A stretch of DNA of 33,093 bases from Vicinamibacterales bacterium (GTDB taxonomy: Bacteria; Acidobacteriota; Vicinamibacteria; Vicinamibacterales; CAVVIG01): NCBI GenBank assembly GCA_035571855.1, contig DATNBT010000093.1, forward strand, positions 1-33,093, read 5' to 3'. The notes below the pieces were generated by a model, which worked only from the letters and a program-made list of their open reading frames with translations, was not told where the DNA came from and did no database searches. Below are positions 1-24,823 of this stretch, one piece after another. Within the stretch, counting starts at the first letter, position 1. Every line of letters begins with the position of its first letter. The position numbers and the translations under genes are program-made.

Positions 1-2574
1 GGCATGCTCGTGTTCGGCGGCGCGGGCGGCCGCGTCAACGAAGCGCGCATCCAGGTCGACGGCCTCAACACCGGCGCGGCGTTCAACGGCGCCGGCGTCT
101 CCAGCTACGTCGTCGACATCGGCAACGCGCAGGAAATCTCCATGACGACCTCCGGCGGCCTCGGCGAAGCCGAAGTCGGCGGGCCGTCGTTCTCGATCGT
201 GCCCAAGACCGGCGGCAACGCGATCAAGGGCAGCGTGTACCAGTCGAACGTCACGAAGGGCATGGTGGGCGACAACTACACCGACGCGCTCAAGGCGGCG
301 GGCCTGTCGACGCCTGGCAAGCTCTACAAGCTGTGGGACACGAACATCGGCGTGGGCGGCCCGATCAAGAAGGACACGGTGTGGTTCTTCGCGCAGTTCC
401 GCGACGAAGGCAGCCACCGCACGATTCCGGGCATGTTCGCCAACGTCAACATGGGCGACCCGACGAAGTGGACCTACGTCGCCGATCCGAGCCGTCCGGC
501 GGTGGCCGCCGGCAGCTGGCGCAACGGCGCGCTGCGTCTGACGTTCCAGCCGACGACGCGCAACAAGTTCAACGTGTTCTGGGATCAGCAGATCCCCTGC
601 CAGGGCGCGGGCGTCCTCGGCAGCAACGCGGGCTGCCGCCAGAGCGGCGACGGCGAAATCATCTGCGGCGCGCCCGGCGCGAGCAACCCGGCGTGCACGT
701 CGAACACGGCGCCTGAAATCGGCACCTACCTCGCCGGCTTCGGCCAGCGCGTCCAGCAGGCGACGTGGAGCTCGCCGTGGACGAACAAGCTGCTCCTCGA
801 AGCGGGCTTCGGCACCTACTGGAGCCAGTGGGGCGGCATTCAGCATCCCGGCAGCAACTTCTACGATCTGATCGGCGTCACCGAACAGTGCGCGCCGAGC
901 TGCGCGGCCAACGGCAACATCGCCAACCTGCAGTACCGCTCCGGCACATATCGCTGGAACCTGCAGGGCACGGTGTCCTGGCGCGCGTCGGCGTCGTATG
1001 TCACGGGCGCCCAGAGCATGAAGTTCGGCTATCAGGGCGGCTACCTCTACGACCATCAGTACACCTACACGAACAGCCAGTACCTCGCGTTCCGCGTCAA
1101 CAACGGCGTGCCGAACCAGCTGACGGAACAGCTCAACGCGTTCCCGGCGGATCAGCGCGTGCGCTACGACGCGTTCTACGCGCAGGATCAGAAGACGATC
1201 GGCAAGTACACGATCCAGGGCGCCCTCCGGTACGATCGCGCGTGGAGCTACTTCCCGGCGGTCACGGTGGGTCCGGAGCGCTTCCTGCCGAACGCGATCA
1301 GCTTCCCCGAGACGAAGGGCGTGAATTCGTACAACGACATCACACCGCGTGTCGGCCTCGCGATGGACGTGTTCGGCAACGGCAAGACGTCGATCAAGGT
1401 CAACGCCGGCAAGTACCTCCAGGCCGCCCAGAACGGCCTCGCATACGCGACGCTGCGTCCCAGCGGCCGCCTGCAGGGCACTTCGGCTCGGACCTGGACC
1501 GACACGAACCGCGACTTCGTTCCCAATTGCGACCTGCTGAACCAGGCCGCCAACGGCGAATGCGGTCAGGGCAACACGGGATTCGGCACGAGCGCGTTCA
1601 CGAGCGACCTCGATCCGAAGCTCGTGGGCGGCTGGGGCGTGCGGCCGGGCGACTGGGGCTTCGGCGCCAGCGTCCAGCAGCAGATCCTCCCGCGCATGTC
1701 GGTCGAAGTCGGCTACAACCGCCGCTGGCTGACCAACTTCACGTGGGATGACAACGTCCTGCAGCCGGTCGGCCAGTTCGGCCAGTACACGATCGTCGCC
1801 CCGAGCGATCCCCGCCTCCCGGCCGCGGCACAGGGCCGCACGAGCGGCATCCTCTACAACGCCAACCCGGCGGTCGCGGCGTCGACGAACAACGTCACGA
1901 AGCTCGCGACGGATCTCCCGGGCGGCACCTACTCGCAGGTGTACAACGGCGTCCTGCTGAACGTGTCGGCGCGTCCGCGGACGGGCCTCGTGTTCCAGGG
2001 CGGCGTCAGCGGCGGTCCGACGAGGACCGACTACTGCGGCGCCCGCGCGGCGTCACCGGCGTTTACGGCGCTCGGCGCACAGGGCGTGGCGAATCCGTGG
2101 TGCAACACGGTCACGGGCTTCCTCGCGCGCTACACGGGTCTCGGCAGCTACACGCTGCCGAAGATCGACGTGCTCGTCTCGGGCACGTTCCGCAGCGACG
2201 CCGGCGCGCCGCTCGCGGCCAACTGGACGATCACGCAGGCGGCTTCGCCGTCGAACTGGGCCGCGATTCAGTCGCAGCTCGGCCGTCCGCTCAGCCTCGC
2301 GGCGACGAGCGTCACGGTCAACCTCGTCGAGCCGGGCACGCTGTATGGCGACCGGGTCAACGAGTTCGACGCGCGCCTCGCGAAGATCATCCGCATCGGC
2401 CGGACCCGCACGAACATCGGGTTCGACCTCTACAACCTGCTCAACTCGTCGGCGGTTCTCAGCTACAACCAGGCGTTCAGCACCACGGCTCTGACCGGTG
2501 CGGCGGCCTGGCTGTCGCCGTCGAGCGTGCTGCAGCCGCGGTTCTGGAAGTTCTCGGTCCAGGTGGACTTCTAG
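1..2574 (+). CDS. TonB-dependent receptor-like outer-membrane beta-barrel protein, 5'-truncated by the window edge
   Basis: The frame is open from base 1 (ORF track 4..2574). It is a clear paralog of the 5039..8056 product across the barrel: WSSPWTNKLLLEAGFG vs WSSPVSSKLLLEAGGT, DITPRVGLAMDVFGNGKTSIKVNAGKY vs DFDPRIGAAYDLFGNGKTAIKGSIGRY, and GGWGVRPGDWGFGASVQQQILPRMSVEVGYNRRW vs TGWGVRPYNWESQLSIQQQVAPRVSVYLGYSRRW. The C-terminus ...FSVQVDF ends in an aromatic residue, as is typical of OM barrels. Confidence 0.85.
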   Translation, partial: GMLVFGGAGGRVNEARIQVDGLNTGAAFNGAGVSSYVVDIGNAQEISMTTSGGLGEAEVGGPSFSIVPKTGGNAIKGSVYQSNVTKGMVGDNYTDALKAAGLSTPGKLYKLWDTNIGVGGPIKKDTVWFFAQFRDEGSHRTIPGMFANVNMGDPTKWTYVADPSRPAVAAGSWRNGALRLTFQPTTRNKFNVFWDQQIPCQGAGVLGSNAGCRQSGDGEIICGAPGASNPACTSNTAPEIGTYLAGFGQRVQQATWSSPWTNKLLLEAGFGTYWSQWGGIQHPGSNFYDLIGVTEQCAPSCAANGNIANLQYRSGTYRWNLQGTVSWRASASYVTGAQSMKFGYQGGYLYDHQYTYTNSQYLAFRVNNGVPNQLTEQLNAFPADQRVRYDAFYAQDQKTIGKYTIQGALRYDRAWSYFPAVTVGPERFLPNAISFPETKGVNSYNDITPRVGLAMDVFGNGKTSIKVNAGKYLQAAQNGLAYATLRPSGRLQGTSARTWTDTNRDFVPNCDLLNQAANGECGQGNTGFGTSAFTSDLDPKLVGGWGVRPGDWGFGASVQQQILPRMSVEVGYNRRWLTNFTWDDNVLQPVGQFGQYTIVAPSDPRLPAAAQGRTSGILYNANPAVAASTNNVTKLATDLPGGTYSQVYNGVLLNVSARPRTGLVFQGGVSGGPTRTDYCGARAASPAFTALGAQGVANPWCNTVTGFLARYTGLGSYTLPKIDVLVSGTFRSDAGAPLAANWTITQAASPSNWAAIQSQLGRPLSLAATSVTVNLVEPGTLYGDRVNEFDARLAKIIRIGRTRTNIGFDLYNLLNSSAVLSYNQAFSTTALTGAAAWLSPSSVLQPRFWKFSVQVDF

Positions 2575-2646: not shown

Positions 2647-3072
2647 ATGGACGATCGCACCACTGCATACGTGCTCGCAGCGCAGCCCGTCTTCGAGGAT
2701 CTCAGGCAGGTCGCCGCGCAGCTCGCCGGGCTGCTCGTACTCGTGGCGACAGAATCAAAAGAAGCGACGCCGGATCACCCGATGCTGCTGACGTCGCGGC
2801 AGGTCTTCGCCGCGGCTGAAGACGGGATGAAAGACGTCCGCGCCACCGAACACGCGCGCGCGCATCACCGCAGCCTGGTAGCAGCGAGCGTCTCGTTGAA
2901 TGAAGCGCTGACACGCGCGACCGCGTGGCCGATCGATATCGATGCCGTGCTTGGTCCCCTGCAACACGCGTACGCATGTCTGCAGCAGGCATCGCACGCG
3001 TTACCCGGATTTCCCGTCGTCGAAATGTCTCAGGGATGCTGTGCTCTGAGCAAGTCCCCCAACGTCTTCTGA
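2647..3072 (+). CDS. Hypothetical protein, 141 aa, predicted helical
   Basis: ATG ORF with mostly G/C third positions, though noticeably less biased than its neighbours. No motif recognised. The ATG directly abuts the terminator T-tract, leaving no room for an SD or promoter. The 3' end overlaps the convergent 3030..4970 gene by 43 nt. Confidence 0.4.
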   Translation: MDDRTTAYVLAAQPVFEDLRQVAAQLAGLLVLVATESKEATPDHPMLLTSRQVFAAAEDGMKDVRATEHARAHHRSLVAASVSLNEALTRATAWPIDIDAVLGPLQHAYACLQQASHALPGFPVVEMSQGCCALSKSPNVF

Positions 3073-4970
3073 GCCGCCGGCGACTGCGGCTGAAGCCGCA
3101 GCGCTTCCTTCGCCTCCCTGATTCCCTCGTCCAGCTTCCCCGTCATCGCCAGCGCGAGACCGAGATTTCTGTGCGCGTCGGCGTTACGCGGATCGAGCTC
3201 CGCGGCGCGGCGCAGATGCGTGACGGCATCGGCGATCTGATTCCGCGCGCCCAGCAGGACGCCGAGGTTGAAGTGCGCGTCCCCGTTGTCGGGGTTCAGC
3301 GTGACCGCGCGCGCGAACTCGTCGATGGCTTCCGTCGTCGCGCCGCCGGCTTCGAGCGCGCTCGCGAGGTTGAAATGCACGCGGTCGTCTTTCGGCGCGA
3401 GCGACACCGCCAGCCGGCCTTCGCGCACCGAATCGGCGACGCGGCCCTGCGCCTGGTACGCCGTCGCGAGGTTGCTGTGCGCCTCGGCGTCGCGCGGGTT
3501 CAGGCGCACCGCCTCGTTCAGCTCTTTCACCGCGTCGGCGACGCGTCCGGCCTGCAGGTATTTCGTCGCCAGGTAGTTGTGCGCGAGCGGATCGTCCGGG
3601 CTCACCCGCACCTGCGTTTCGCCGCCGGCGATGTCCGCTTTCAGCGCGCGCACGTTGTAGTCGCGCATCAGGACGGCGAGATCCTCGGCGCGGTGCGGCT
3701 GCACCTCGAGCCACATCGCCCCCATTTCGTCGGCCGACTTCGGCCCCCATTTGATGCGCGAGGCGCCCTTCGAGTTGTCGTACGTGATGCGCATCGACAG
3801 CGTCGTGCCCGCCGGCAGCGCCACCGGCGACGCGTACCTGTACTGATCCTGCCAGCGGAAATCCCACTGCTTGATCCACAGCAGCCATTTCGTGCTGCCG
3901 TCCGGCAGCGTCGCCTTTGCCTGCATGTCCTTCGCGTGGTAGTGCGCGTGCGGGTAGATGCTCGTCGCGTCGACGTCGGCCGGCAGCACGTAGCTGTCTT
4001 CGACGACGTACGCCTTCTCGCCGGCGGGGATGTCGATCGACTTCGACTCGAGCCGGACGAGAAACGGCTCGCGCGCCGGCGCCTGGTCCGTCACGAAGAG
4101 GCCGAGCACCGGCCGCACCGGCTCCGGCTTCCCCGTCGGCAGCAGATGCATCTGGACGACGAGGTCGCTGCCTTTCTCGAGCGTCCAGGCGCGATCCGCG
4201 GGCTCCATGTACGGCGCCTTTCCGGGCGACCAGCCGTAGACGTTCTGCACCTGATCGTCGGGCATCGCCGCGAATCCCGGCTGTCCGTCGCGGCCGTCCA
4301 GCTTGCGCGACACCCGGAACCGATCGACGCCGACGCTCGCGTGGTGGAACATCCGCGGGTTGTCGGCGCGCAGCTCGATCGCGCGCACGTACATCGCCTG
4401 ACGCGTGGCTTGCCCTGAGCGTGAGTCGAAGGGGACGGGGATGACGAAGTTCCTGAACAGATCGCCGCCGGAGGCGGGCACGGTGAACGCCTTCGGCGCC
4501 TCCACCACGAGGTCCGGTTGCCCGAGCTGCCAGCCGTTCGGGAGATCGGGCAGCGGCGGCTTCGCGGCCGGGTCGCCTTCGGGCGCGCCCTGCTCCGCCC
4601 ACGTCCGCAGCAGCGCGATCTGCGCGTCGCTCAGCGTCCGCGCGCCCGCGAAGTCTCCGTAGCCGGCGGCCGGCAGCCACGGCGGCATCGTCTTTCGCTC
4701 GACGGCCGACGCGATCTGCTTCGCGTGCGCCGCGACGTCTTTGTATTCGAGCACGCTGAAGGGAGCGCCGGCGAAACAAATCGGATCGCCCGAGGCCGTC
4801 GTCCGCGAGCCGTCAATCGGCCGGTGACACGTCGCGCAGTTGGAGTAGACGATCGGCGCGATGTCTTTGTTGAAGGTAACGACGTGTAGCGGCTGGGCCT
4901 GCGGCCTCTGCGAACACGCGGCCGCAAGAAAGAGGCAGGAGAGGCAGGAAAGGCGGGACGGGAAAGACAT
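3030..4970 (-). CDS. Lipoprotein fusing a c-type cytochrome domain, a PHM/DBH-like copper type II monooxygenase core and C-terminal TPR repeats
   Basis: Signal peptide with lipobox LFLAAAC (Cys19). Haem motif CATCH at residues 45-49, with KTMPPW downstream. Copper-ligand-like residues are FHH (209-210), QMH (275), HAH (341-343) and SADEM (Met416). Their spacing matches the PHM CuH/CuM ligands. About 5 TPR repeats occupy residues ~460-640 (e.g. AEAHSNLATAYQAQGR, GDAHFNLGVLLGARN, ADAHRNLGLALAMTGK). Confidence 0.85.
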   Translation of the reverse strand: MSFPSRLSCLSCLFLAAACSQRPQAQPLHVVTFNKDIAPIVYSNCATCHRPIDGSRTTASGDPICFAGAPFSVLEYKDVAAHAKQIASAVERKTMPPWLPAAGYGDFAGARTLSDAQIALLRTWAEQGAPEGDPAAKPPLPDLPNGWQLGQPDLVVEAPKAFTVPASGGDLFRNFVIPVPFDSRSGQATRQAMYVRAIELRADNPRMFHHASVGVDRFRVSRKLDGRDGQPGFAAMPDDQVQNVYGWSPGKAPYMEPADRAWTLEKGSDLVVQMHLLPTGKPEPVRPVLGLFVTDQAPAREPFLVRLESKSIDIPAGEKAYVVEDSYVLPADVDATSIYPHAHYHAKDMQAKATLPDGSTKWLLWIKQWDFRWQDQYRYASPVALPAGTTLSMRITYDNSKGASRIKWGPKSADEMGAMWLEVQPHRAEDLAVLMRDYNVRALKADIAGGETQVRVSPDDPLAHNYLATKYLQAGRVADAVKELNEAVRLNPRDAEAHSNLATAYQAQGRVADSVREGRLAVSLAPKDDRVHFNLASALEAGGATTEAIDEFARAVTLNPDNGDAHFNLGVLLGARNQIADAVTHLRRAAELDPRNADAHRNLGLALAMTGKLDEGIREAKEALRLQPQSPAAQKTLGDLLRAQHP

Positions 4971-5038: not shown

Positions 5039-8000
5039 CTAGAACTGGACCTGCACTCCGAAGTCGACGAACCGCGGCGTCATGATGACCGTCGGCGCGA
5101 GCCACGAGGTGCCGTAGGTCTGCTGATACGCGTTGTTCGTGTTGGTCGGATTCGCGTTGAACAGGTTGTAGACCGACACCGTCGGACGGATCGTCGTCGC
5201 CCGGAACTTGATGCTCTTCGTGAACCGGATGTCCGTCTGGTAGATGCGATCGAGATACAGCAGACCAGGCTGCACGAGGCTCACCGACGGCGCCACGCTC
5301 GAGAACGTGCGGCCGAGCGTGAGACCCGGGGTGGTGTTCGTCAGCGGGTAGTTCGCGTTGATCTGCGCGCCCGGCAGGCTCTGGAAGCTGATCGAGCCGC
5401 CGATGCCCCACGGGAACGGATAGGTCAGCTGTCCCTTGACGTTCGGCTGGAACGGCGGATGCACGTCGCAGTACGCCGTCGTGTGCGGCGTGTTCGTGCT
5501 GAGCGTGCCGACGCCCACCGACGTGATCTGGAGGTTGTCCTCGAAGTCGCAGATGTTGAAGCGCTCGCGGCCCCAGCTCACGCCGCCGTTGACGAGGATG
5601 CCCTTCGCCAGGCGCGCGTTCGCGTCGAAGTCGATGCCGTCGTACACGTCCTGCACCTTGCCGAAGTTGTCAGCCTTCTGAATCAGGCTGATCGCCGTCG
5701 TCGGCCGGACGAGGTCGAAGTATCCGCACTGCTGGCCGCCGGCGCCCGGCAGAGACACGCCGGTCACGGACGGAGCCGTCGGAACGCCGATGCAGTACGG
5801 GGTGTAGCTGGCATTGGTCACCGCGGTGTTCTGCGTGGCGAAGAAGTTGCCGAACCAGCGGCGCGAGTACCCGAGGTACACCGAGACGCGCGGGGCGACC
5901 TGCTGCTGGATGCTCAGCTGCGATTCCCAGTTGTACGGACGCACGCCCCAGCCCGTGACGATGGCCGGATCGTAGGTCGTCGTCGGCGCCACCTGCGTGC
6001 CGAACGTCGGCGCCGCGAGCGGACCGCACGTGCCGTTGGCGAGCGGGTTCGACAGGTTGCAGTCGAGACGCGGATCGAGCTGGCCGGCCGGATCGGCGCT
6101 CCACGTGCGCGTCGTCGAGTTGATCGTCGACGTCACGGGATTGACCGCGCGCGCGATCGTGTAGCCGTCGGCGACGACGTAGCGGCCGATGCTGCCCTTG
6201 ATGGCCGTCTTGCCGTTGCCGAACAGATCGTAGGCCGCGCCGATACGCGGATCGAAGTCCTTCCAGTTCGGGACGTTGTCGAGGCCGGCAAACGAACGCG
6301 CCGGCGTGAACGGACCCGCGTTGAGGCTCTGCGGATCGACCGAGGCCTTCAGGAAGTCGATGCGCGCGCCGTAGTTGAGCGTCAGGCGCTTGATGGTCCA
6401 CTGATCCTGCGCGTAGAGGCCCATGTTGTAGTTGACGGTCTCGTGGAACGAGATCGGCGTCGCGAACTCGGTGATCGAGAACGGCGCGCCGTTGTTCAGC
6501 GTCAGCGACAGCGAGTTGTTCGGCTCCTGCGTGACGTAGCGCCACTGGTGCATCAGGTTGAAGCCGACCTTCGTGCTGTGCGAACCGGTGACGTACGACA
6601 CCGAGGCGCGGTAGTTGATCTGGTTGCTGCGGTTGGCGCCGTACTGGGTGCCCGCCGATCCCCAGGTCGACGGCATGCCGGGCTGCGGCAGGCGCTCGGT
6701 GATCTGGAACTGCGTCTCAGGCACACCGGGCTGACGGAAACCGTGGAAGTCCTGCGCCGTCAGCGTGCCGCCGGCTTCGAGCAGCAGCTTGCTGCTGACC
6801 GGCGAGCTCCAGCTGGCCTGGATGATGTACTGCGGGATGTTCTTGAACTCGGGGCACGCGCTGATGGCGGTCAGGAAGCTCGGCACGAAGCAGTTGCCGA
6901 AGTCCGTGTACTGCCAGTCGTAGTACGCGTTCACCTTGTTCTTCGGGCTCACCTGCGTCGTCAGACGGGCCGCGGCGCTCTGGTGCCACACCGGGAACAG
7001 GTTCTGCGCCGTGGTGCAGTTGCCGGCCGCGTCCTTGTTACAGCTGTAGATCTTCTCGGTGAAGTCCGCGTCCTTGAACGATCCGGCGACGTTGTTGTAC
7101 GTGCCCCAGTGGCGGAAGCCGCCGTAGATCCACATGCGGTCCTTGATGATCGGGCCGCCGGCGTCCGGGTTGATGTCCCAGATCTTGTTGACGAGGTTCG
7201 CGCTCTTGAGGCCCTGCGAGATCTGCGTCGCGTCGAGGTTGTTGCTCTCGAGCGACTGATTCGTGAAGCGGCCGTCGAACGTTCCGCGGAAGACGTTGCT
7301 GCCTTCCTTCGGGATGAAGTTCGACATGACCGACGCGCGCTCGAACTCGGCGCCGTTGCCGCCGGTCTGGAACGTGATTTCCTGCGCGAGGGCGTTGTTC
7401 AGGTAGTTGCCGTACTGGAGGCCGCCCTGGCCCGAACCGTTGATGATCGGCATGCCGTCGACCATGACGAGGCTGTCCGCCGCGCGGCTGCCGTGGACGA
7501 CGAGGTTCATGCCCGTCTCGGGGATCGACCCGCCGACGTTCTGCGAGACGCCGGTGACGAACACGCCGGGCGTCATCGCCGCGAAGCTGACGAAGTTGCG
7601 GTCGGTCGGCAGCGCGTCCATGACTTCGCGCGACGACGTCTGCTTCTGCACGACGTTCTGCGTGTCGACGATGGGGCTTTCGCCGGTGACCGTGATCGTC
7701 TCGGAGACCTGGCCGACTTTCATGTCGGCGTTGACGTTCGCCGTGAACGCGGACGTCAGCTCGATGCCTTCGCGCTTCACCGTCGCGAAGCCCGTCAGCG
7801 TGAACGTCACGGAATAGGTGCCCGGACGGAGATCGATGATCTTGTAGGCGCCCTGGCCGTCGGTGACGGCCGTGCGGACTTTCTCAATCAGCGCGGGGCT
7901 GGCGACTTCGACGGTCACGCCCGGCAGAACGGCGCCGCTCGTATCCTTCACGACGCCCGCGATTGAGCCCGACTGACCCTGCGCCAGCGCGAACGCGGGC

Positions 8001-8056
8001 ACGAGAGCCAGAAGCAGCATCGCGATGCTGATTCGTACAGCTCGAACAACTCCCAT
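5039..8056 (-). CDS. TonB-dependent receptor with an N-terminal carboxypeptidase-regulatory-like domain
   Basis: Signal peptide MGVVRAVRISIAMLLLALVPAFALAQ. CarboxypepD_reg-like segment GSIAGVVKDTSGAVLPGVTVEVASPALIEKVRTAVTDGQGAYKIIDLRPGTYSVTFTLTGF. Plug-like region (VVHGSRAADSLVMVDGMPI), a long barrel, and a C-terminal ...FGVQVQF. A strong SD, GAGGAGGAA, lies 4 nt upstream of the ATG. Confidence 0.92.
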   Translation of the reverse strand: MGVVRAVRISIAMLLLALVPAFALAQGQSGSIAGVVKDTSGAVLPGVTVEVASPALIEKVRTAVTDGQGAYKIIDLRPGTYSVTFTLTGFATVKREGIELTSAFTANVNADMKVGQVSETITVTGESPIVDTQNVVQKQTSSREVMDALPTDRNFVSFAAMTPGVFVTGVSQNVGGSIPETGMNLVVHGSRAADSLVMVDGMPIINGSGQGGLQYGNYLNNALAQEITFQTGGNGAEFERASVMSNFIPKEGSNVFRGTFDGRFTNQSLESNNLDATQISQGLKSANLVNKIWDINPDAGGPIIKDRMWIYGGFRHWGTYNNVAGSFKDADFTEKIYSCNKDAAGNCTTAQNLFPVWHQSAAARLTTQVSPKNKVNAYYDWQYTDFGNCFVPSFLTAISACPEFKNIPQYIIQASWSSPVSSKLLLEAGGTLTAQDFHGFRQPGVPETQFQITERLPQPGMPSTWGSAGTQYGANRSNQINYRASVSYVTGSHSTKVGFNLMHQWRYVTQEPNNSLSLTLNNGAPFSITEFATPISFHETVNYNMGLYAQDQWTIKRLTLNYGARIDFLKASVDPQSLNAGPFTPARSFAGLDNVPNWKDFDPRIGAAYDLFGNGKTAIKGSIGRYVVADGYTIARAVNPVTSTINSTTRTWSADPAGQLDPRLDCNLSNPLANGTCGPLAAPTFGTQVAPTTTYDPAIVTGWGVRPYNWESQLSIQQQVAPRVSVYLGYSRRWFGNFFATQNTAVTNASYTPYCIGVPTAPSVTGVSLPGAGGQQCGYFDLVRPTTAISLIQKADNFGKVQDVYDGIDFDANARLAKGILVNGGVSWGRERFNICDFEDNLQITSVGVGTLSTNTPHTTAYCDVHPPFQPNVKGQLTYPFPWGIGGSISFQSLPGAQINANYPLTNTTPGLTLGRTFSSVAPSVSLVQPGLLYLDRIYQTDIRFTKSIKFRATTIRPTVSVYNLFNANPTNTNNAYQQTYGTSWLAPTVIMTPRFVDFGVQVQF

Positions 8057-8162: not shown

Positions 8163-9146
8163 CTACCGCGACCCTGAAAGGGTCGCTTTCCGCAAACGGT
8201 CAAGTTCGCGCTTGGCCTCGCTGCTCCCGGGATCGAAGCTCAGCGCTTTCGTGAGGTCGGCGACGGCCGACTCGCGGTCACGTTTCGCGAGGTGCGCCCT
8301 GGACAACTCGAGATAGGTCGTGACGGACTTCGGGTAGAACTCGGCGTTCAGCTGCAGCCAGGCGAGCGCGTCGTCCGGCTTTATGGTCGAGAGCGACTCG
8401 CGCGCGAGATCGACCAGCGTCGACTCACGGAAATCGTAGGCGCCGGAGTCGAGATACTGCTGGCGCAGCTCGCGGTACTGCACCACCGCCGCGCCCTCCC
8501 CCTTCCCCAGCATCGTCTGCCGCAGGACGTCGGAGAGCTGCGCCGGCACCGGCACGCCGCGGTGGCACGTCGCGCACTCCACGCGCGTGATGTCCGCGGC
8601 CGGCTTCTTCAGTGCGCTCGCGAGCGTCGCGTTGATGTCCCGGGTCATCGCGAGCATGACGCGCGCGGTGAGCTTCGTGCGCTTGTCGTCGGCGGCGTAG
8701 TCCATCTGCGGCCCGCCGCGTCCACGTCCGCGGCCCCGGCCGGCCTGCGCGGCGGCCCCCTGTCCCTGCTGCCCGCCCCGTGCGCGCTGCTGTTGCGCCT
8801 GCTGAGCCGCCGCCGCAGCCGCAGCAGCCGCCGCGGCCTGCTGCGCCTCCAGTTCTTCGACGGTGAGGAGCGGCGCCGCCTGTTCGATGTGGCAGTAGGT
8901 GCACTGGACGCCGAGCGCGCGCGTGAACTGCTGCATCTGCGCGACGACCTGCGCCGGCGGCGTGTCTTTCGGGAGGACCTGGAGATTCTTCGGCGCCGGC
9001 GGTCCGGCGGGAGCCGCGCCCTGGCCCTGCTGGGCCGTGACAATCGCGGTCGCACAGAGCAGCGTGGCTGTCAGGCAGATGTAGAGCAGACCTTCAGGTC
9101 TGCGGATGCGCCGGCAGGCCTGAAGGCCTGCACTCCGAGTGTTCAT
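8163..9146 (-). CDS. Exported dihaem c-type cytochrome (photosynthetic-reaction-centre cytochrome c-like fold family) with a TPR-like C-terminal domain
   Basis: KNLQVLPKD...FTRALGVQCTYCH (CxxCH at 8889..8903) and VECATCHRGVPVP (8562..8576) match the pattern I associate with PF02276-like acidobacterial cytochromes. A hydrophobic signal segment LLYICLTATLLCATAIVTAQQ is present. The C-terminal part is helical and TPR-like. The ATG at 9146 overlaps the ankyrin stop as ATGA, but the start is uncertain because REP-like hairpins lie within codons 6-21. Confidence 0.8.
   Translation of the reverse strand: MNTRSAGLQACRRIRRPEGLLYICLTATLLCATAIVTAQQGQGAAPAGPPAPKNLQVLPKDTPPAQVVAQMQQFTRALGVQCTYCHIEQAAPLLTVEELEAQQAAAAAAAAAAAQQAQQQRARGGQQGQGAAAQAGRGRGRGRGGPQMDYAADDKRTKLTARVMLAMTRDINATLASALKKPAADITRVECATCHRGVPVPAQLSDVLRQTMLGKGEGAAVVQYRELRQQYLDSGAYDFRESTLVDLARESLSTIKPDDALAWLQLNAEFYPKSVTTYLELSRAHLAKRDRESAVADLTKALSFDPGSSEAKRELDRLRKATLSGSR
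9086..9131. repeat. Inverted pair of REP-like GC hairpins, each a 7-bp stem with a 4-nt loop
   Basis: GCAGACC-TTCA-GGTCTGC lies at 9086..9103 and GCAGGCC-TGAA-GGCCTGC at 9114..9131, separated by 10 nt. The 19-mer GGCAGGCCTGAAGGCCTGC recurs exactly at 24800..24818. Confidence 0.6.
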
Positions 9147-10624
9147 TTCGCGTCCCGCTGCGCGATCAGCTCGCGCAGGAGCGCCGCCGTCTGCTGGCGC
9201 ACGGGCGGCGGACCGCCGGCGCGTCCGCGCGCGCCGATGCCGAGCGCGAGATCGACCGGCGTGTGGCCCTGCCTGTCCTTCACGTCGAGCATCGCGCCGT
9301 GCGCGGCGAGGTACTTCACGATGTCGTCGGACACCTGCGCGGCGAAGTGCATCGCCGTCTGGCCCGCGTCGTTGACCGCATTGACGTCGACGCCGTGCTC
9401 GACGAGCACCTGGACGCCGTTGAACATGTCGCGTTCGGTGCCGATGTCTTTCTGGAAGACGCCGGTCCCGCGGCCGTTGCCGGCGGCGAACATCAGCGCC
9501 GTCGTGTGATTGTTCGTCGTCATCGCCGCGTCGGCGCCGTGCGCGAGCAGGATGCGCATCGCGGCGGCGTCGCCCGTCCTCGCGGCGCGCATCAGCGGCG
9601 TCGCGCCGGCGCCGAGCAGGCCGTCGCCGGGCGTGTGCGCGCGCTGGACGGTCGCGGACCGCAGCTGCGCGTTCACGTTGGCGCCGTGCGCGAGGACCAC
9701 TTTCATGAGATCGAGCGCGGAGATCGTGCTCGTCGACTTGCGGTTGGGCCGCCCGTAGATCTCGGCCGGCATGTCCATGTCGACCGCCGCGTACAGGACC
9801 GCCATGCCGGACGTGTCCGCGAGATTCGGATCCGCGCCGCGCTCGACGAGCATGGCGGCGACGTCGTAGTGCTCGTTGATGGTCGCGAGGATCGCCGGAG
9901 TCGACAGATCGGGATCGCGCGCGTTCTTGTCCGCACCGGCGTCGACGAGCACCTTCGCGGCGTCGAGCGATCCCTGGCGCGCCGCGTACATCAGCGGCGT
10001 CCAATGCCCGTGCGGCAGGATCGTCAGCACGCCTTCGAGGCCGAACCGGTCTTTCGTGTATTTCAGATCGCTCGTCAGCGCGTTGACGTCGGCGCCGTGC
10101 GCGATCAGCTCCTTCGCCGCCTCAGGATGATTTTCGGCGGCGGCCCACATCAGCGCGGTCTCGCCGAGGCGGTCTTCGCGCGCGTTGACGGCCGCGCCGT
10201 GTTCGATGAGCAGCCGCACGGCTTTCGGATTGCCCGTGCGCGCCGCCGCCATCAGGACGGTCTCCCCTTCCTTGATTACTGCCTTCGCGTCGGCGCCGGC
10301 GTTCAGGAGGAGCTCGGTCATGTCGCCGTTCGCGTTGGCCGCGGCGAGCGACAGCGGCGACACGCCGTAGCGGTTCACCGCGTTGACGTTCGCGCCGGCG
10401 GCGATCAGTTCTTTGGCGGTCTCGAGATCTTCGCCGCGAACGGCCCAGTCGAGCGGGGTCGTGCCGTCCGGCTCCGCCGTGTTGACGGCGGCCTTTCCCG
10501 CAGGCGAGGCGAGGATCGAGTGGACGGCGCTGCGATCGCCGGCTTTGACGGCGTCAGCCAGCGTCGGCCCCGCGGCGGAGATCGAGGTGAGCGCGAAGAG
10601 AACCGCGACCGCTGCGTATTTCAC
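9143..10624 (-). CDS. Exported ankyrin-repeat protein, about 10 repeats
   Basis: GTG start at 10624 gives VKYAAVAVLFALTSISAAG, a signal peptide. Repeated ankyrin consensus is present: G.TPL..A...G......LL..GA..N (e.g. DGTTPLDWAVRGEDLETAKELIAAGANVN, GWTPLMYAARQGSLDAAKVLVDAGADKN, GATPLMRAARTGDAAAMRILLAHGAD). The long upstream extension in the ORF track (to 11080) overlaps the DUF1552 gene and is rejected. Confidence 0.9.
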   Translation of the reverse strand: MKYAAVAVLFALTSISAAGPTLADAVKAGDRSAVHSILASPAGKAAVNTAEPDGTTPLDWAVRGEDLETAKELIAAGANVNAVNRYGVSPLSLAAANANGDMTELLLNAGADAKAVIKEGETVLMAAARTGNPKAVRLLIEHGAAVNAREDRLGETALMWAAAENHPEAAKELIAHGADVNALTSDLKYTKDRFGLEGVLTILPHGHWTPLMYAARQGSLDAAKVLVDAGADKNARDPDLSTPAILATINEHYDVAAMLVERGADPNLADTSGMAVLYAAVDMDMPAEIYGRPNRKSTSTISALDLMKVVLAHGANVNAQLRSATVQRAHTPGDGLLGAGATPLMRAARTGDAAAMRILLAHGADAAMTTNNHTTALMFAAGNGRGTGVFQKDIGTERDMFNGVQVLVEHGVDVNAVNDAGQTAMHFAAQVSDDIVKYLAAHGAMLDVKDRQGHTPVDLALGIGARGRAGGPPPVRQQTAALLRELIAQRDAK

Positions 10625-11949
10625 GCGAACAATCCGGAAATGGGCGACTCGCCGTCGCCGAACTGCTTCAGGTTGTCGCCGAACTTGTGCGCCACCGCGA
10701 GCCACAGGTCGCCGACCGGCGTCCGCACCGGCAGCTCGACGTGGCGATAGCCTTTGCCGAGGGCGCCGCCCATGCAGACGACCGGCAGCGGATCGGTGAG
10801 ATGGCCGTTCGGATTGCCCATGCCGCCGCCGCTGATGACCATCGAGTGATCCAGCAGCGTGCCGTCGCCGTCCTCGATCGACTTCAGTCTGGCGATGAAC
10901 TTCGCGAACAGCTGCATGTGATACGTGTTGATCTTCACGTTCTCCGCGATCTTGTAGGGATCGTTGCCGTGGTGCGACACCGTGTGGTGCTGCTCGGTGA
11001 CGCCGATGTTGTTGTACGTCCGCTGGCTCAGCTCGCGCGACAGCATGAACGTGAACACGCGCGTGACGTCCGCCTGCCACGCCGCGGCGACGAGGTCGTA
11101 CATCAGGCCGACGTGATCTTCGAACGAATCCGGCACGCCGACCGGCGCGCCCACGGTGACGGTCGACGAGCCGTGCGCCTCGGCCTGCTGGATGCGGCGC
11201 TCGATTTCACGCAGGTTGTCGAGATACTCGTTGACGCGCGTGCGGTCGCGGCTGCCGAGCGTCCTGCGCAGGTCGCTCGCTTCGGCGGTGATCGAATCGA
11301 GGATGCTCTTCTCCGTGCGCGCGCGCGTCGCGCGGCTCTCGATCGTCCCCGCCTGTCCGAACAGCCGCTCGAACACCAGCCGCGGGTTGATCTCCATCGG
11401 CAGCGGGGTCGTCGGCGAGCTCCACGAGATCGTGTTGAGGTAGGCGCAGCTGAATCCCGGCGAGCACGCGCCGACGTAGCCCGTGAAGTCCTCTGTCGCG
11501 ACTTCGAGCGAGGGGAGCGGGGTGTCCTGGCCGATCTGCTTCGCGATGACCTGATCGATCGTCGTGTTGGCGTAGACGTCTTCGGCTTCAGTCCGCTTCG
11601 GCCACACGCCGGTGAGATAGCCGCCGACGCTGACCGCGTGGTCGCCGACCTGGCTGCCCGGATGCGACCGCGTCAGGTTCTTCACCACGACGAGATGGTC
11701 CTTGAACGGCTCGAGCGGCTGGAGGATCGGCGTGAACTCCCAGCCGGTGCCGAACGACTTCGGGAAGAGCTCGTCGACGATCGCGCCGTTAGGAATGTAG
11801 ATCGCGCCGAACCGCGTCTTCGGCGCGGCCGCGGCCTTCACGAGCGGCGTGAACGCCGGCACCATCGCGTCGAGCAGCGGGAGCGCGATCGCCGCGCCGG
11901 CGCCTCGAAGGAACGTTCGTCGTGAGAGCGAGAGTTTCGTAATGAACAT
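10621..11949 (-). CDS. DUF1552 domain protein with a twin-arginine signal
   Basis: The N-terminus MFITKLSLSRRTFLRGAGAAIALPLLDAM is the characteristic Tat/DUF1552 opening. Its position immediately downstream of a DUF1592-type gene is the canonical pairing. Its stop overlaps the ankyrin GTG start as GTGA. Confidence 0.9.
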   Translation of the reverse strand: MFITKLSLSRRTFLRGAGAAIALPLLDAMVPAFTPLVKAAAAPKTRFGAIYIPNGAIVDELFPKSFGTGWEFTPILQPLEPFKDHLVVVKNLTRSHPGSQVGDHAVSVGGYLTGVWPKRTEAEDVYANTTIDQVIAKQIGQDTPLPSLEVATEDFTGYVGACSPGFSCAYLNTISWSSPTTPLPMEINPRLVFERLFGQAGTIESRATRARTEKSILDSITAEASDLRRTLGSRDRTRVNEYLDNLREIERRIQQAEAHGSSTVTVGAPVGVPDSFEDHVGLMYDLVAAAWQADVTRVFTFMLSRELSQRTYNNIGVTEQHHTVSHHGNDPYKIAENVKINTYHMQLFAKFIARLKSIEDGDGTLLDHSMVISGGGMGNPNGHLTDPLPVVCMGGALGKGYRHVELPVRTPVGDLWLAVAHKFGDNLKQFGDGESPISGLFA

Positions 11950-11950
11950 C

Positions 11951-14299
11951 TCAATTCACCTTCGCGATTTGCTGCGGTTGCGCCATCCGCATCGTGAACG
12001 GGACGCTGTTTACGACCCCGAGGACGATCGTCTGAAACCGGTAATCCTTCGCCGCCGCTTCGCGCATGATCGCACGAACGGCCGGCATGTCGTGCGCGTC
12101 GAGCCCTCGTCCGAGCGCGTAAATCAGCATTTTTTCCGTCATCGTGCGCACGAACACGTCGGGATGCGCCATGAGCGCCTTCCGGAGCGTCACCACCCCG
12201 TCGACCTTGCTGCCGTCGACCAGCTCGCCCGTCGCGTCGATCGGCTTGCCGTTCTCGTCCGTCGACCGCCACGAGCCGGTGACGTCGAAGTTGTCGAGCG
12301 ACAGGCCGATCGGGTCCATCACCTTGTGGCACGTCGCGCACACCGGGTTCCTGCGGTGCTCCGCCATCTGCTCGCGCATCGACTTCGGCGCGTCGTTCGG
12401 ATTCTGATCCGCGAACACGCCGGCGCCGGGAATCGGCGGAGGCGGCGGCACCGGCAGGCCCAGGATGTTTTCGAGAATCCACTTGCCGCGCTCGACCGGC
12501 GACGTGCGTTCGGCGTGCGACGTCACCGCGAGGACGCTGCCCTTGCCGAGCAGGCCGAAGCGGCGCTCGTCGGTGAGCGTCACGCGGCGGAACCGGCTGC
12601 CGTAGATGCCGGGAATGCCGTAGTGTTTCGCCAGCCGCTCGTTCACGAACGTGTAGTTGCCCGTCATCAGGTCGAGGACGGACCGGTCTTCCCGCATGAT
12701 GCTCTCGAAGAAGAGCTCCGTCTCGCGCTTGAAGGCCGAGCGCAGGTTGTCGTCGAAGTCCGGGAAGAGATCCGAGTTCGGCTGGACGTTGCGGACGTTG
12801 CGCAGCTGCAGCCACTGTCCCGCGAAGTTGTCGATGATCGCCTTCGACTTCGGATCGGCGAGCATGCGGTGGACCTGCGCGTCGAGGACGGCCGGATCCT
12901 TCAGCTTGCCCTGCTCCGCCACCGCCAGCAGCTCATCGTCGGGAATGCTGCTCCAGAGAAAAAACGACAGGCGCGACGCGAGCTCGATGTCCGGCAGCCT
13001 GTACGGCGTGCCCGGCTTGACGTTGACCGGATCCTTCTCGACGCGGAAGACGAACCGCGGCGCCGCGAGGATGCGCATCAGCGCCGCTTCGACGCCGGCC
13101 TCGAAGGTCGAGTTCTTCGACGCCTCGCGGTAGATCTGCATGATGCGCTGCATATCCACAGCGCCGACCGGTCCTCGATACGCACGATGCGCGATCCTCG
13201 ACAGGATTCGCTCCGCGCATGTCCCGGTCCCCCTGCACGTGAAGATCGAGCGCCGGCTCGGCGTGTCGCCGGGGCCGCTGGAGTTGAACGGGCCCGTGAT
13301 CGTGAACGTCTGCATGTGCGGACGCCCGGCCCAGTCGAAGTTGTCGATCGAGCTGCGCACGAACGGCTGCAGGCGGTTCGGCTCCTGCACCGGCGCATCC
13401 TCGACGAAGGCGACCGAGACGATGTGCGGACCGGCTTTCACCGGCACGCGCACGCGCAGCCGCGCGTCCACCGCGTCGCTCGTGTCGGTCGGCTTGTCGA
13501 ACAGATCCGCGAGATCTTCCTTCCCGCCGATCGTCGCCAGATACACGCGCCTGCCGTCGATCGCGAACTCGACGTCATGCGGATACTCGAGGCCGCGCAT
13601 GATGTTCAGGTTCGTCCGGTAGAGCTTCACCTGCAGCACGTAGTCGCCGTCCAGCGGGAACGTGTAGCGCACCGACGTGCCGCCGATCGTGCCGAGCGGG
13701 AGGCCTTCGATGTGCTGGTCCTGCGAGAGATCCTGGCGGATGCGGAACGTGTCGCTGCCGGCGGTGATGTCGGGATCGCCGACGGCCACGGCGGCAATCT
13801 TCGCCGCGGCCGACAGGTACTTCTCCTGCAGCGACGGCGACACGCCGAGCACGTCGGAAATGTTGTCGAATCCGTACGCCGCATCGTCGGGCGGCAGGAG
13901 CGAGGTCACGTCGACGTCGAGCGCGAGCAGATCGTGAATCGCGTTGGCGTACTCGCTGCGGTTGAGACGATGCAGGATCGGCGCGCCGGGATTGGGATGC
14001 GCGAGCGCGTCGGCGTCGAGCTCGCGTTCGATCGCGGTCTGCACCGATCGATAGGTCGCCTCATCAGGGCGCCGGGCGCCCTGCGGCGGCATCGCGCGCG
14101 CCTGCAGCTTGCGCACGACTTTCTCCCACATCTCGGGATCGAGCGCGGGATGCGCGGCGTCCGCTTTCTCGAGCGACAGCCCCGAGGTCTTCAGCCGATC
14201 GTTGTGGCACGTGACGCAGTACTGCTTGATCGCGTCCTGCTGCGCGCTGACGACAGCCACCGACAGCACAACAGCAACGGCCCAGACCCCGCGTTTCAT
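11951..14299 (-). CDS. DUF1592/DUF1588/DUF1585-family (planctomycete-type PSCyt/PSD) protein with c-type haem motifs
   Basis: Signal peptide MKRGVWAVAVVLSVAVVSAQQ. Haem motifs CVTCHN...AMPP and NPVCATCHKVMDPIG. Family hallmarks are SRLSFFLWSSIPDDELL, FAGQWLQLRN, NERLAKHYGIPGIYG, TSPVERGKWILENILG and DPIGLSLDNFD. The track start at 14320 is a TTG, so I prefer the ATG at 14299. Confidence 0.9.
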   Translation of the reverse strand: MKRGVWAVAVVLSVAVVSAQQDAIKQYCVTCHNDRLKTSGLSLEKADAAHPALDPEMWEKVVRKLQARAMPPQGARRPDEATYRSVQTAIERELDADALAHPNPGAPILHRLNRSEYANAIHDLLALDVDVTSLLPPDDAAYGFDNISDVLGVSPSLQEKYLSAAAKIAAVAVGDPDITAGSDTFRIRQDLSQDQHIEGLPLGTIGGTSVRYTFPLDGDYVLQVKLYRTNLNIMRGLEYPHDVEFAIDGRRVYLATIGGKEDLADLFDKPTDTSDAVDARLRVRVPVKAGPHIVSVAFVEDAPVQEPNRLQPFVRSSIDNFDWAGRPHMQTFTITGPFNSSGPGDTPSRRSIFTCRGTGTCAERILSRIAHRAYRGPVGAVDMQRIMQIYREASKNSTFEAGVEAALMRILAAPRFVFRVEKDPVNVKPGTPYRLPDIELASRLSFFLWSSIPDDELLAVAEQGKLKDPAVLDAQVHRMLADPKSKAIIDNFAGQWLQLRNVRNVQPNSDLFPDFDDNLRSAFKRETELFFESIMREDRSVLDLMTGNYTFVNERLAKHYGIPGIYGSRFRRVTLTDERRFGLLGKGSVLAVTSHAERTSPVERGKWILENILGLPVPPPPPIPGAGVFADQNPNDAPKSMREQMAEHRRNPVCATCHKVMDPIGLSLDNFDVTGSWRSTDENGKPIDATGELVDGSKVDGVVTLRKALMAHPDVFVRTMTEKMLIYALGRGLDAHDMPAVRAIMREAAAKDYRFQTIVLGVVNSVPFTMRMAQPQQIAKVN

Positions 14300-14391
14300 T
14301 TGTTGAATTCTATCGAACAAATGTCATTTTACTCAAGCGGCCAATGTTAAGCTTCCGCCTTCGCTGCCTGGCGGCGTCGGCGGACAAACCT

Positions 14392-16376: not shown

Positions 16377-17513
16377 CTATTTCGGATACACCGGCAGCGT
16401 GACGTGATCGCCGAACGTGGCCTTCAGTCCTTCGATGGCGCACGCCTCGTCGCCGCCGCCGCCCGCGCCGCCGCCGACGCCGATCGCGCCGATCATCTGG
16501 CCGTCCACGACGATCGGCAGCCCGCCGGCATTCGTGAAGAAGCCGAACTGCTCGATGTTCCGCGCCAGGCCGGCCGGGTTGTTGCGCGCCTGCGCGTTGT
16601 ACACCGACGTCGGCACGCGCGTCTTGAGCGACGTCTGCGCCTTCAGCAGCGCCGTGCGGATGTTGTTGAACACCTGTCCGTCCATGCGCTCCGCATGAAC
16701 CATCTCTCCGGCCGTGTCGAGGACGAAGAGCGACATGCCGCCGCCCTTCGCGGCCGAGAAGTCGCGGCACACGTTCGCGACCTTCTTCGCCGCGGCGAGC
16801 GAAATCTGATTGCCGTCGTACACGGTCGTTCCCGCTTTCGAGCTGACCACCCACTCCGGATTCGAGATGCTCGATTTCGGCGCCGTCGTGCTGGCGAACC
16901 GTGGCACCGGCGCCGGAGTGGCGGGAGGCGCGGGCTGCGGGTTCGGTAGATCCTCGACAAGCGGAGCGACGTTCGCGGCGCCGAGCACTTCCTGCATCGC
17001 CTTGTGCCCGCAGATTTCGTCGCTCCACACCGGCACGCGCGGCGCCGAGCCGCCGATGCCGATGACGCCGATCATCTGTTTGTTGATCACGACGGGCAGA
17101 CCGCCGGAATTCGGAAACATGCCGAGCTGGATTCGCTGGAGCTCCGCGTTCGGATCGCGGCGCACCTGGTTCATGACCAGCTTGCTCGAGCCGCGCTGCA
17201 TGAGCGCGGTGCGCGCCTTCATTTCCGCCGTGATGATGTTCAGGTAGCCCTGTCCGTCCATGCGGTCCATGTAGACGAAGTTGCCGTCGTCATCCAGCAC
17301 CGCGATGCTGATGCCGACGTTCTCCGCCGCGGCGAGCCGCTCGCACGCTTCCGAAATCCGCTGCGCCGTGTCCAGATTGATCGTGTTGAAATCCTGGATC
17401 TGCTCGGCCAGCTTGCCGCTGACGACGAACTGCGACGGGACGTTCTGCGCTGCGACGCCGGCGCCGAGCGCGAGGACGACCGCAGCAACCGCTCCCGTGA
17501 ACCGCGTACTCAT
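16377..17513 (-). CDS. Secreted protein with two tandem GlcG/HbpS-like (DUF336) domains
   Basis: Signal peptide MSTRFTGAVAAVVLALGAGVAAQ. Two copies of the DUF336 signature are present: NSGGLPVVINKQMIGVIGIGGS and NAGGLPIVVDGQMIGAIGVGGG. An AAGGAG SD lies 7 nt upstream of the ATG at 17513. The track start at 17531 contains that SD and is rejected. Confidence 0.85.
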   Translation of the reverse strand: MSTRFTGAVAAVVLALGAGVAAQNVPSQFVVSGKLAEQIQDFNTINLDTAQRISEACERLAAAENVGISIAVLDDDGNFVYMDRMDGQGYLNIITAEMKARTALMQRGSSKLVMNQVRRDPNAELQRIQLGMFPNSGGLPVVINKQMIGVIGIGGSAPRVPVWSDEICGHKAMQEVLGAANVAPLVEDLPNPQPAPPATPAPVPRFASTTAPKSSISNPEWVVSSKAGTTVYDGNQISLAAAKKVANVCRDFSAAKGGGMSLFVLDTAGEMVHAERMDGQVFNNIRTALLKAQTSLKTRVPTSVYNAQARNNPAGLARNIEQFGFFTNAGGLPIVVDGQMIGAIGVGGGAGGGGDEACAIEGLKATFGDHVTLPVYPK

Positions 17514-17532
17514 GTCTCTCTCCTTACACAAG

Positions 17533-18764: not shown

Positions 18765-19251
18765 TGGGCGTCGCAATCTTCGGCACGTGGCCGCGTTTGT
18801 AGATCATCACGGTCCGCTTGTATTCGATCACGACCGTGCCGTTCTGGTTGAAGCCGATCGTCTTGAACGTCACGATGCCGACGTTCGGCCGGGATTTGCT
18901 CTCGCGCTTCTCGAGGACTTCGCTGCGCGAGTAGATGGTGTCGCCTTCGAAGACGGGATTCGGCAGCCGGACGTCGTCCCAGCCGAGGTTCGCCATCGCG
19001 TTCTGCGAGATGTCGGTGACCGACTGCCCCGTCACGAGGGCCAGGGTGAACGTCGAGTCGACGAGCGGTTTGCCGAACTCCGTCTGCGACGCATAGTGCG
19101 CGTCGAAGTGCACCGGGTTGGTGTTCTGCGTGAGCAGCGTGAACCAGATGTTGTCGGCCGCGAGCACCGTCCGCCCGAGCGGATGCGGATAGACGTCGCC
19201 GACCTCGAAGTCTTCGTAACAGCGTCCGGTCCAGCCTTCTTTGACAGCCAT
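18757..19251 (-). CDS. MaoC-like (hot-dog fold) enoyl-CoA hydratase/dehydratase
   Basis: The 164-aa size is typical of single hot-dog hydratases. The hydratase-2-like motif is LLTQNTNPVHFDAHYA. Its ATG shares one base with the upstream MFS stop (TAATG). Confidence 0.88.
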   Translation of the reverse strand: MAVKEGWTGRCYEDFEVGDVYPHPLGRTVLAADNIWFTLLTQNTNPVHFDAHYASQTEFGKPLVDSTFTLALVTGQSVTDISQNAMANLGWDDVRLPNPVFEGDTIYSRSEVLEKRESKSRPNVGIVTFKTIGFNQNGTVVIEYKRTVMIYKRGHVPKIATPNV

Positions 19252-20498: not shown

Positions 20499-20514
20499 CG
20501 TTCAGCGTTCAGTG

Positions 20515-22972: not shown

Positions 22973-22997
22973 AAACTAAGTTGCCAATACTACTCGA

Positions 22998-23107: not shown

Positions 23108-23111
23108 CACA

Positions 23112-24818: not shown

Positions 24819-24823
24819 GCTGC

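Follow-up and report, generated by a model that had tools for sequence, protein, structure and literature searches.

The gene at 3030..4970 on the reverse strand of a 33,093-nucleotide stretch from a soil bacterium, Vicinamibacterales bacterium (contig DATNBT010000093.1 of assembly GCA_035571855.1; the whole stretch is called the window here) encodes a 646-residue protein whose central part is truly homologous to the catalytic cores of peptidylglycine alpha-hydroxylating monooxygenase (PHM) and DBH. Cores of this type make amidated peptide hormones and noradrenaline in animals. The bacterial protein is probably an exported, lipid-anchored redox enzyme of three modules, in which a haem c domain would feed a two-copper core of the PHM/DBH type, a tetratricopeptide repeat (TPR) tail would serve for docking, and the whole would work together with a receptor. 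The original prediction, made by a model from the sequence alone, had placed a lipobox, a CATCH motif, an MPP motif, six copper ligands and a TPR tail in this open reading frame (ORF); all were found in the translation, CATCH at 45-49 and MPP at 95-97, and every residue cited is at the position claimed.

Features of the gene and its product

The third-position GC content of the ORF is 0.89, which is typical for genes of this window of 66% GC. A paralogue of the product was sought within the window and none was found. The features are listed below with their window coordinates.

3030..4970 (-), whole gene, 646 residues, ATG start; lipoprotein with cytochrome c domain, PHM-like two-copper core and TPR tail
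4914..4970 (-), signal peptide and lipobox, residues 1-19, with predicted lipidated Cys19 and Ser at +2; read from the sequence
4569..4889 (-), predicted mono-haem c-type cytochrome domain, residues ~28-134; conserved motifs, weak Pfam and PDB profile matches
4824..4838 (-), CATCH haem-attachment motif (C45, C48, H49); invariant in the alignments
4680..4688 (-), M95-P96-P97, likely distal Met haem ligand; invariant in the close-homologue and N-terminal-domain alignments
4083..4523 (-), N-terminal beta-sandwich (CuH domain), residues ~150-296; model strands 154-294, aligned to PHM chain positions 30-128 and beyond, Foldseek match to PHM
4341..4346 (-), H209-H210, corresponding to PHM CuH ligands H107/H108; family vvhHa aligned with PHM TVHHM
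4146..4148 (-), H275, corresponding to PHM CuH ligand H172, with Q273 corresponding to PHM Q170; lvlQlHl aligned with FVLQVHY
3687..4073 (-), C-terminal beta-sandwich (CuM domain), residues ~300-428; model strands 303-425, sub-threshold PF03712 at 335-421
3942..3950 (-), H341-A-H343, corresponding to PHM CuM ligands H242/H244; ypHaHylak aligned with RVHTHHLGK
within the CuM domain, Q374, corresponding to PHM Q272; family wQdeY aligned with PHM PQAFY
3723..3725 (-), M416, corresponding to PHM CuM ligand M314, in a D-E-M motif; ssdEMgdlwlq aligned with SSDEMCNLYIM
3033..3683 (-), TPR solenoid tail, residues ~430-646; Pfam TPR families, one long helix followed by ~11 shorter helices

Homology of the copper core to PHM

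A core profile was built from 31 mutually divergent cores with 37-49% identity to the query. Among the solved structures of the PDB, its matches were significant for rat PHM alone (E 2.2e-5), and the best unrelated chain had E 0.65. The alignment spans both domains (profile positions 28-287, about 260 positions, against PHM chain positions 30-276) and holds all six ligands in register. PHM numbering was obtained from the chain position with an offset of 44 and was checked on Y79, H107, H172, Q272 and M314. Identity between the query core and PHM is ~16%, and the position of PHM Y79 is aligned with F here. From this register, H209, H210 and H275 are predicted to form the CuH site and H341, H343 and M416 the CuM site.

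The contexts of H341/H343 and M416 in the product are YPHAHYHAKD and SADEMGAMWLEV. Their PHM counterparts VHTHHLGK and SDEMCNLYIMY, as quoted in the original prediction, are present in the HMMER alignment to PDB PHM chains, in register with the family motifs. The ligand spacings, recounted in the translation, are 65 (210→275), 66 (275→341) and 73 (343→416) residues, in agreement with the approximate values first given and nearly identical to those of PHM (64, 70 and 70). No cysteines were found in the copper core; the disulfides of PHM are therefore missing.

The AlphaFold2 model, made with 48 homologues, has a mean predicted local distance difference test score (pLDDT) of 83.3 and a predicted template modelling score of 0.79. 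It consists of a helical N-terminal domain, two beta-rich domains (154-294 and 303-425) and twelve helices over residues 430-644. Foldseek comparison with the PDB matched it to PHM entries 3mll (E 3e-11) and 1phm (E 2.3e-10) with a target-normalised template modelling score (TM) of 0.65 over 280 columns, which is the whole PHM core, and to human DBH 4zel (E 1.5e-9). Over the PHM entries as a group, target-normalised TM ranged from 0.57 to 0.65 and E from 3e-11 to 2.5e-9, in alignments of 280-311 columns. Besides PHM and DBH, all entries among the top 50 were TPR proteins matching the tail. The proposal of a PHM/DBH-type core is thus borne out both by the predicted two-beta-sandwich fold and by the profile search that places the six ligands in register.

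Conservation of the ligands, set beforehand as a test of the proposal, was determined in 150 representatives at 38-79% identity. Each ligand is kept in 145-150 of them: H209 in 147, H210 in 148, H275 in 149, H341 in all 150, H343 in 149 and M416 in 145. The position of Q273 is occupied by Q in 106 and by E in 21. In the 48 closer homologues (55-83% identity) the six ligands are invariant, as are C45, C48, H49 and M95-P97.

Probable cytochrome c domain

The N-terminal domain is probably a divergent mono-haem class-I-type cytochrome c with His/Met ligation by H49 and M95. In an alignment of 27 divergent N-terminal domains of the family the two C, the H, P-F, M-P-P, L, W and G are invariant. The CxxCH motif is present in 123 of the 126 representatives with an intact N-terminus, and M95 is kept in 132/150, the remainder being mostly gaps. 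Pfam matches of the 27 domains are weak and all below the gathering score (Cytochrome_CBB3 in 22/27, best E 1e-5; Haem_bd in 9; PccH in 2). A profile of the N-terminal domain found as best PDB matches the haem-c region of hydrazine synthase alpha 5c2v (E 0.0034), Geobacter PccH 4rlr (E 0.011) and cytochromes c6. The earlier assignment as a c-type cytochrome is upheld by the invariant CxxCH and MPP motifs, the weak Cytochrome_CBB3 matches and these haem-c domains. Membership in PSCyt1 was considered as well and is not claimed, because hhalign to the window's own PSCyt1-type cytochrome was weak (probability 11%).

Directly after CATCHRP the product carries a 14-residue insertion, IDGSRTTASGDPIC (4776-4817, residues 52-65), with a lone cysteine, Cys65. 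The insertion and Cys65 are invariant in the 48 close homologues and missing from 147/150 divergent representatives, and are hence clade-specific. The cysteines of the mature protein are C19 (predicted to be lipidated), C45 and C48 (haem) and Cys65, and none else; Cys65 might act as an additional ligand or take part in a disulfide between molecules.

Export signal and TPR tail

The lipobox reads L15-A-A-A-C19, with R6 in the n-region and six uncharged positions preceding it. C19 is conserved at 90% or more in the close clade, as seen in the 48-homologue alignment. A lipobox-like motif is present in 39/46 close homologues, several of the remaining ones resembling near-misses, but in only 50/124 divergent representatives, where the listed examples without one mostly have ordinary signal peptides. 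Because of this difference, the wider family is predicted to be exported, and the clade of the query to be lipid-anchored. The description as a lipoprotein therefore stands for the close clade and does not extend to the family as a general trait.

The TPR tail that had been reported is confirmed by a Pfam match to TPR_11 (E 1.5e-34 over residues ~450-646), by model helices over 430-644 with pLDDT >90, and by the TPR structures that head the Foldseek list. In an NCBIfam scan of the product TPR-type models alone match, and the core is covered by no curated family.

Family size, architecture and distribution

More than 6,000 homologues of the product were found in a 90%-clustered collection. Searches with the core alone (residues 135-450) reached 6,729 representatives at 50% identity when all matches with E ≤ 1e-3 were counted, and 903 at the stricter limit of E ≤ 1e-30. 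The size of the family appears to have escaped notice so far. Among the matches listed, members are named "tetratricopeptide repeat protein", "Flp pilus assembly protein TadD", "Tfp pilus assembly protein PilF" or "mono/diheme cytochrome c family protein"; the clusters of 10 divergent representatives bear the names "TPR repeat protein" and "mono/diheme cytochrome c family protein" alone. A precomputed PF03712 assignment is carried by 2/120 homologues among the matches listed.

The TPR tail is matched by 125/131 representatives with a tail of at least 100 residues, and the median extension before the core is ~128 residues. With CxxCH in 123/126 and TPR tails in 125/131, the design of cytochrome, core and TPR tail is, as read from the sequences, the family norm. 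One representative from a metagenome, P0127 (1,064 residues), contains two complete modules of cytochrome and core in tandem (CxxCH at 40 and 593, HH at 181 and 735, DEM at 405 and 960) and almost no TPR tail. The cytochrome and the copper core are therefore inherited as a unit.

Gene context was studied in the 80 best loci from GTDB species representatives, which were found with search patterns from close homologues (55-83% identity). Since the patterns came from an alignment of close homologues, these loci are biased to close relatives and to Acidobacteriota. Almost all are Acidobacteriota metagenome-assembled genomes (MAGs), from Vicinamibacterales, Marinacidobacterales, Terriglobia, Aminicenantes and Solibacteraceae; a single locus bears the label Gemmatimonadales, and the labels of two MAGs are doubtful. 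Several genomes contain multiple copies, some of them in tandem, and in 4 loci the clustering of flanking genes placed another family member no more than three genes from the target. A Marinacidobacterales MAG has two copies ~18 kb apart on CBDFHB010000002.1, in the abutting ranges 3865354-3883144 and 3883196-3900995 (L057 and L063). Three loci lie on one 8.1-Mb chromosome, OZ250169.1 (L043, L050 and L051); two of them have identical match statistics, which suggests a recent duplication.

Gene neighbourhood

The genes upstream of the target on the same strand are listed below.

5039..8056 (-), TonB-dependent-type outer-membrane receptor, 1,005 residues (CarboxypepD_reg, Plug and beta-barrel; Pfam), upstream of the target
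8163..9146 (-), CytoC_RC-like cytochrome with two CxxCH and a TPR-like end (Pfam PF02276, E 3e-14), upstream of the receptor
9143-11080 (-), ankyrin-repeat protein, ORF as listed; its 5' part overlaps the DUF1552 gene, and it overlaps the cytochrome gene by 4 bp
10621-11949 (-), DUF1552 HXXSHH protein with a TAT signal
11951-14320 (-), PSCyt1/PSD cytochrome protein (DUF1585/1587/1588/1592/1595)

The receptor gene and the target gene lie on the same strand, separated by 68 bp; a terminator-like site was looked for in this gap and none was found. The two are probably co-transcribed. In 23/80 loci, or 19/63 of those with enough upstream sequence, the gene directly upstream on the same strand is a receptor homologue. 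Unbiased clustering of the flanking genes of the 80 loci brought out a single recurrent neighbour, the receptor family, which occurs no more than three genes away in 30 loci. In 6 further loci the gene directly downstream belongs to a second receptor-type cluster, and other neighbour families reach 6 loci at most. The cytochrome at 8163-9146 is a candidate periplasmic electron donor.

The closest orthologue on a long contig (L081, 73% identity) has the order DUF1552, ankyrin, CytoC_RC-like cytochrome, receptor, target homologue, convergent 142-residue ORF and second receptor. In the window, the genes at 8163-14320 (-) form a same-strand run of exported redox proteins and proteins of unknown function, and the block is syntenic in L081. 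Since the 5' part of the ankyrin ORF overlaps the DUF1552 gene, its true start is probably further downstream. The ankyrin protein, the DUF1552 protein, the PSCyt protein and the metallo-beta-lactamase-fold (MBL-fold) protein were each considered as general partners and rejected; each is found in 4-6/80 loci and is syntenic in the closest orthologues only.

The target is flanked by two large CarboxypepD_reg-type outer-membrane barrel genes, at 4-2574 (+) and 5039-8056 (-). The former is cut by the window edge and has no Pfam match; receptor-type genes of full length in L002 and L003 share 79% identity with it. A conserved, convergent ORF of 141 residues without Pfam match (2647-3072, +) overlaps the 3' end of the target by 43 bp. 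Its homologues (45-51% identity) lie downstream of the target homologue in L001, L002, L003, L006 and L007; in L081 it is among the called genes. A strong terminator-like hairpin (2612-2641) stands immediately before its start.

Further genes of the window lie at a greater distance. The block at 17961-25741 consists of genes for an MBL-fold protein, a MaoC dehydratase, two MFS proteins, a 128-residue ORF, a 562-residue ORF without Pfam match and a Mem_trans protein. The same gene order is found near a 62%-identical paralogue in another genome (P0071), where the PHM-like gene comes directly after the MBL-fold gene; in the window the block and the PHM-like gene are ~13 kb apart. The protein at 16377-17531 (-) combines a GAF domain with an HbpS-like haem-degrading/haem-binding domain (PF03928, E 8e-44). 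At 30543-32391 (+) a molybdopterin oxidoreductase (Oxidored_molyb and Mo-co_dimer) is followed, with a 38-bp overlap, by a small c-type cytochrome, an arrangement of the SorAB-type sulfite dehydrogenase kind.

Proposed mechanism

Once the protein had been exported by Sec, lipidated and given its haem in a Ccm-dependent manner, the haem would take single electrons from a periplasmic donor, for which the cytochrome at 8163-9146 is the candidate, and would pass them to CuH (H209, H210, H275), the electron-transfer copper. CuM (H341, H343, M416) would bind O2 and abstract hydrogen from a C-H bond of the substrate, and a second electron would move from CuH to CuM across the inter-domain cleft, as in PHM. 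The TPR tail would probably dock a partner, which might be a protein such as the receptor or else a peptide substrate. The enzyme would probably cooperate with the receptor at the outer membrane and act on a compound handled by it. A donor other than ascorbate is suggested by the fused cytochrome c. Since ascorbate is not made by most bacteria, the fused haem would take its place as electron source. We infer the direction of electron flow, the hydroxylation chemistry and the partnership with the receptor.

Contrary evidence and alternative explanations

Several observations weigh against the reading of the product as a haem-fed monooxygenase that works with the receptor. The match of the single sequence to PF03712 is sub-threshold (19.5-21.1 bits against a cut-off of 23, residues 335-421), PF01082, the model of the N domain, is matched by none of the family cores tested (n=31) nor by the query, and a single-sequence phmmer search of residues 1-450 against the PDB gave no match even at E 10. 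The search for Cu2_monooxygen and Cu2_monoox_C that had been suggested as a check gave matches to PF03712 with E <0.01 in 19/31 family cores (best E 3.8e-7), the query itself scoring below the cut-off, and no match to PF01082. As judged by these searches, the family is an outlier to the curated PF01082 and PF03712 models, though the profile-to-PDB search is significant. The window protein matches Cytochrome_CBB3 with only 13.6-17 bits against a cut-off of 27, and the region of the haem site (residues 46-74) is modelled at pLDDT <50, which is expected because the model lacks the haem cofactor. Pairing with the receptor is found in ~30% of loci only, mainly in close relatives, and the surroundings of distant paralogues are unrelated, the preceding gene being one for DUF4159 or for an MBL-fold protein.

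The residues that hold the substrate in PHM count on the same side. In the substrate complex 1OPM, R240, N316 and Y318 are the PHM anchors for peptidyl-glycine. Here R240 is replaced by Y339 (Y in 99/150 representatives, R in 6/150), N316 by A418 and Y318 by W420. On account of these replacements the substrate is probably different from peptidyl-glycine, and the chemistry of PHM is not transferable with confidence. The protein may be described as PHM-like in its predicted mechanism, and it is not predicted to be a peptidylglycine hydroxylase.

The copper core might instead be an oxidase or electron sink: the haem would supply electrons for the reduction of O2, or of another oxidant, at copper, serving detoxification or a purpose linked to respiration, and no organic substrate would be hydroxylated. 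A module that joins haem c to copper is a common design among periplasmic oxidoreductases, no substrate of the protein can be named, and the paralogues are numerous and stand in varied contexts. The His2-Met set of CuM and the equivalents of Q170 and Q272, which in PHM serve coupled substrate oxidation, are nevertheless conserved family-wide, and the TPR docking tail and the receptor partner suggest a specific substrate. We regard this explanation as unlikely.

A genuine bacterial peptidylglycine alpha-hydroxylase, whose TPR tail would capture peptide C-termini while the core hydroxylates C-terminal glycine on the way to amidated peptides, would agree with a core homologous to PHM in both domains and in all ligands. 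TPR domains commonly bind peptide C-termini, and PEX5 and Hop-type TPRs are among the PDB matches of the product. This explanation is distinctly improbable, given that Y339, A418 and W420 stand in place of the three PHM residues that hold the carboxylate and amide of the glycine and that no PAL-type lyase or precursor-peptide gene recurs nearby in the flanking-gene clustering of the 80 loci.

It is very improbable that the product is a lipoprotein that binds and delivers copper for the TonB-dependent receptor in copper acquisition, its PHM-like sites holding metal without catalysis. Such a role would fit the adjoining, probably co-transcribed receptor gene and the two conserved predicted copper sites. 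It does not fit the covalently fused redox haem predicted in nearly all intact members, the conserved second-sphere catalytic residues of PHM, or the ~70% of family loci without a directly adjacent receptor, and the large number of paralogues per genome agrees better with substrate diversification than with metal trafficking.

That the resemblance to PHM is merely one of beta-sandwich fold (PHM/PNGase F superfamily) with chance His and Met residues, in a TPR scaffold with a cytochrome, is suggested by a public annotation as a TPR protein alone and by the sub-threshold single-sequence Pfam matches, and is scarcely credible in view of profile homology to PHM specifically over ~260 positions with 6/6 ligands and further motifs in register, the PF03712 matches of 19/31 cores, and ligands near-invariant over 150 divergent representatives.

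Comparison with known systems

To our knowledge and in the papers searched, no enzymes other than PHM, DBH and tyramine beta-monooxygenase have been studied in which two copper sites of this kind stand far apart; all three are eukaryotic and fed by ascorbate. The predicted three-module enzyme shares with PHM, the catalytic core of PAM (1PHM, 1OPM and 3MLL; PF01082 and PF03712), the two-beta-sandwich fold, the three His of CuH, the His2Met set of CuM, the equivalents of Q170 and Q272 and the D-E-M motif. It differs from PHM in being a bacterial, exported lipoprotein with an N-terminal c-type cytochrome and a C-terminal TPR solenoid, in lacking the disulfides, in the replacement of the anchors R240, N316 and Y318 by Y, A and W, and presumably in not depending on ascorbate.

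DBH, tyramine beta-monooxygenase and MOXD (4ZEL) have the same catalytic core and are likewise built of several domains, one of them added at the N-terminus. In other proteins, DOMON domains bind haem b. It is a DOMON domain that DBH carries (PMC12164859). The N-terminal module of the window protein is, by contrast, a predicted covalent haem-c cytochrome unrelated to DOMON, and its C-terminal module is a TPR tail rather than the dimerisation domain of DBH. The phenylethylamine substrates of DBH and tyramine beta-monooxygenase cannot be assumed for it.

The cytochrome domain has the pattern (V/I)xFxxD(I/V)xPIxxxxCxxCH ... MPP ... LTxxE...W...GA in common with the haem-c region of hydrazine synthase alpha, with PccH and with PSCyt-type mono-haem domains; unlike in these, it is fused here to a copper enzyme. 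The gene order, in which a lipoprotein with a helical domain of TPR type comes after a CarboxypepD_reg-Plug-barrel receptor, is analogous to that of SusC/SusD type pairs. In contrast to those pairs, the lipoprotein here has no sequence relationship to SusD and has predicted redox cofactors, and the pairing is found in only ~30% of loci.

Significance

A 2025 review of PHM and DBM makes no mention of prokaryotic or haem-fused members (PMC12164859). No description of prokaryotic or haem-fused PHM-type enzymes was found in open-access papers and bioRxiv preprints, an absence that is not proof; the earlier statement that bacterial members are uncharacterized agrees with this. The kind of catalytic core is known; new is a bacterial exported protein that combines a predicted covalent haem-c donor, a TPR tail, a link to a receptor and altered substrate residues.

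A wider proposal, which we put forward as tentative and on the whole doubtful, is that the family represents an unrecognized class of outer-membrane-associated, cytochrome-c-powered copper monooxygenases which, as lipoprotein partners of TonB-dependent receptors and thus redox-active counterparts of SusD, oxidise recalcitrant soil compounds (peptides, amines, aromatic material) at the cell envelope, before or during uptake. If this were true, the many paralogues per Acidobacteriota genome would reflect substrate diversification, and the PHM/DBH chemistry of animal neuroendocrine cells would have a haem-fed prokaryotic counterpart.

For copper enzymology, the crossing of the electron from CuH to CuM and the coupling of O2 activation to the substrate are debated (PMC12164859, PMC9064607). 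A bacterial version with a covalent haem donor would be free of disulfides and spectroscopically addressable, a system in which one could trigger the injection of electrons and follow it optically. For soil microbiology, a large oxidative capacity of soil bacteria may go unseen in metagenome annotation, because a family of 6,729 representatives, concentrated in the abundant soil Acidobacteriota, bears generic TPR, pilus-assembly and cytochrome c labels. For the biology of the envelope, the link to a TonB-dependent receptor suggests a possible new coupling of oxidative chemistry to uptake.

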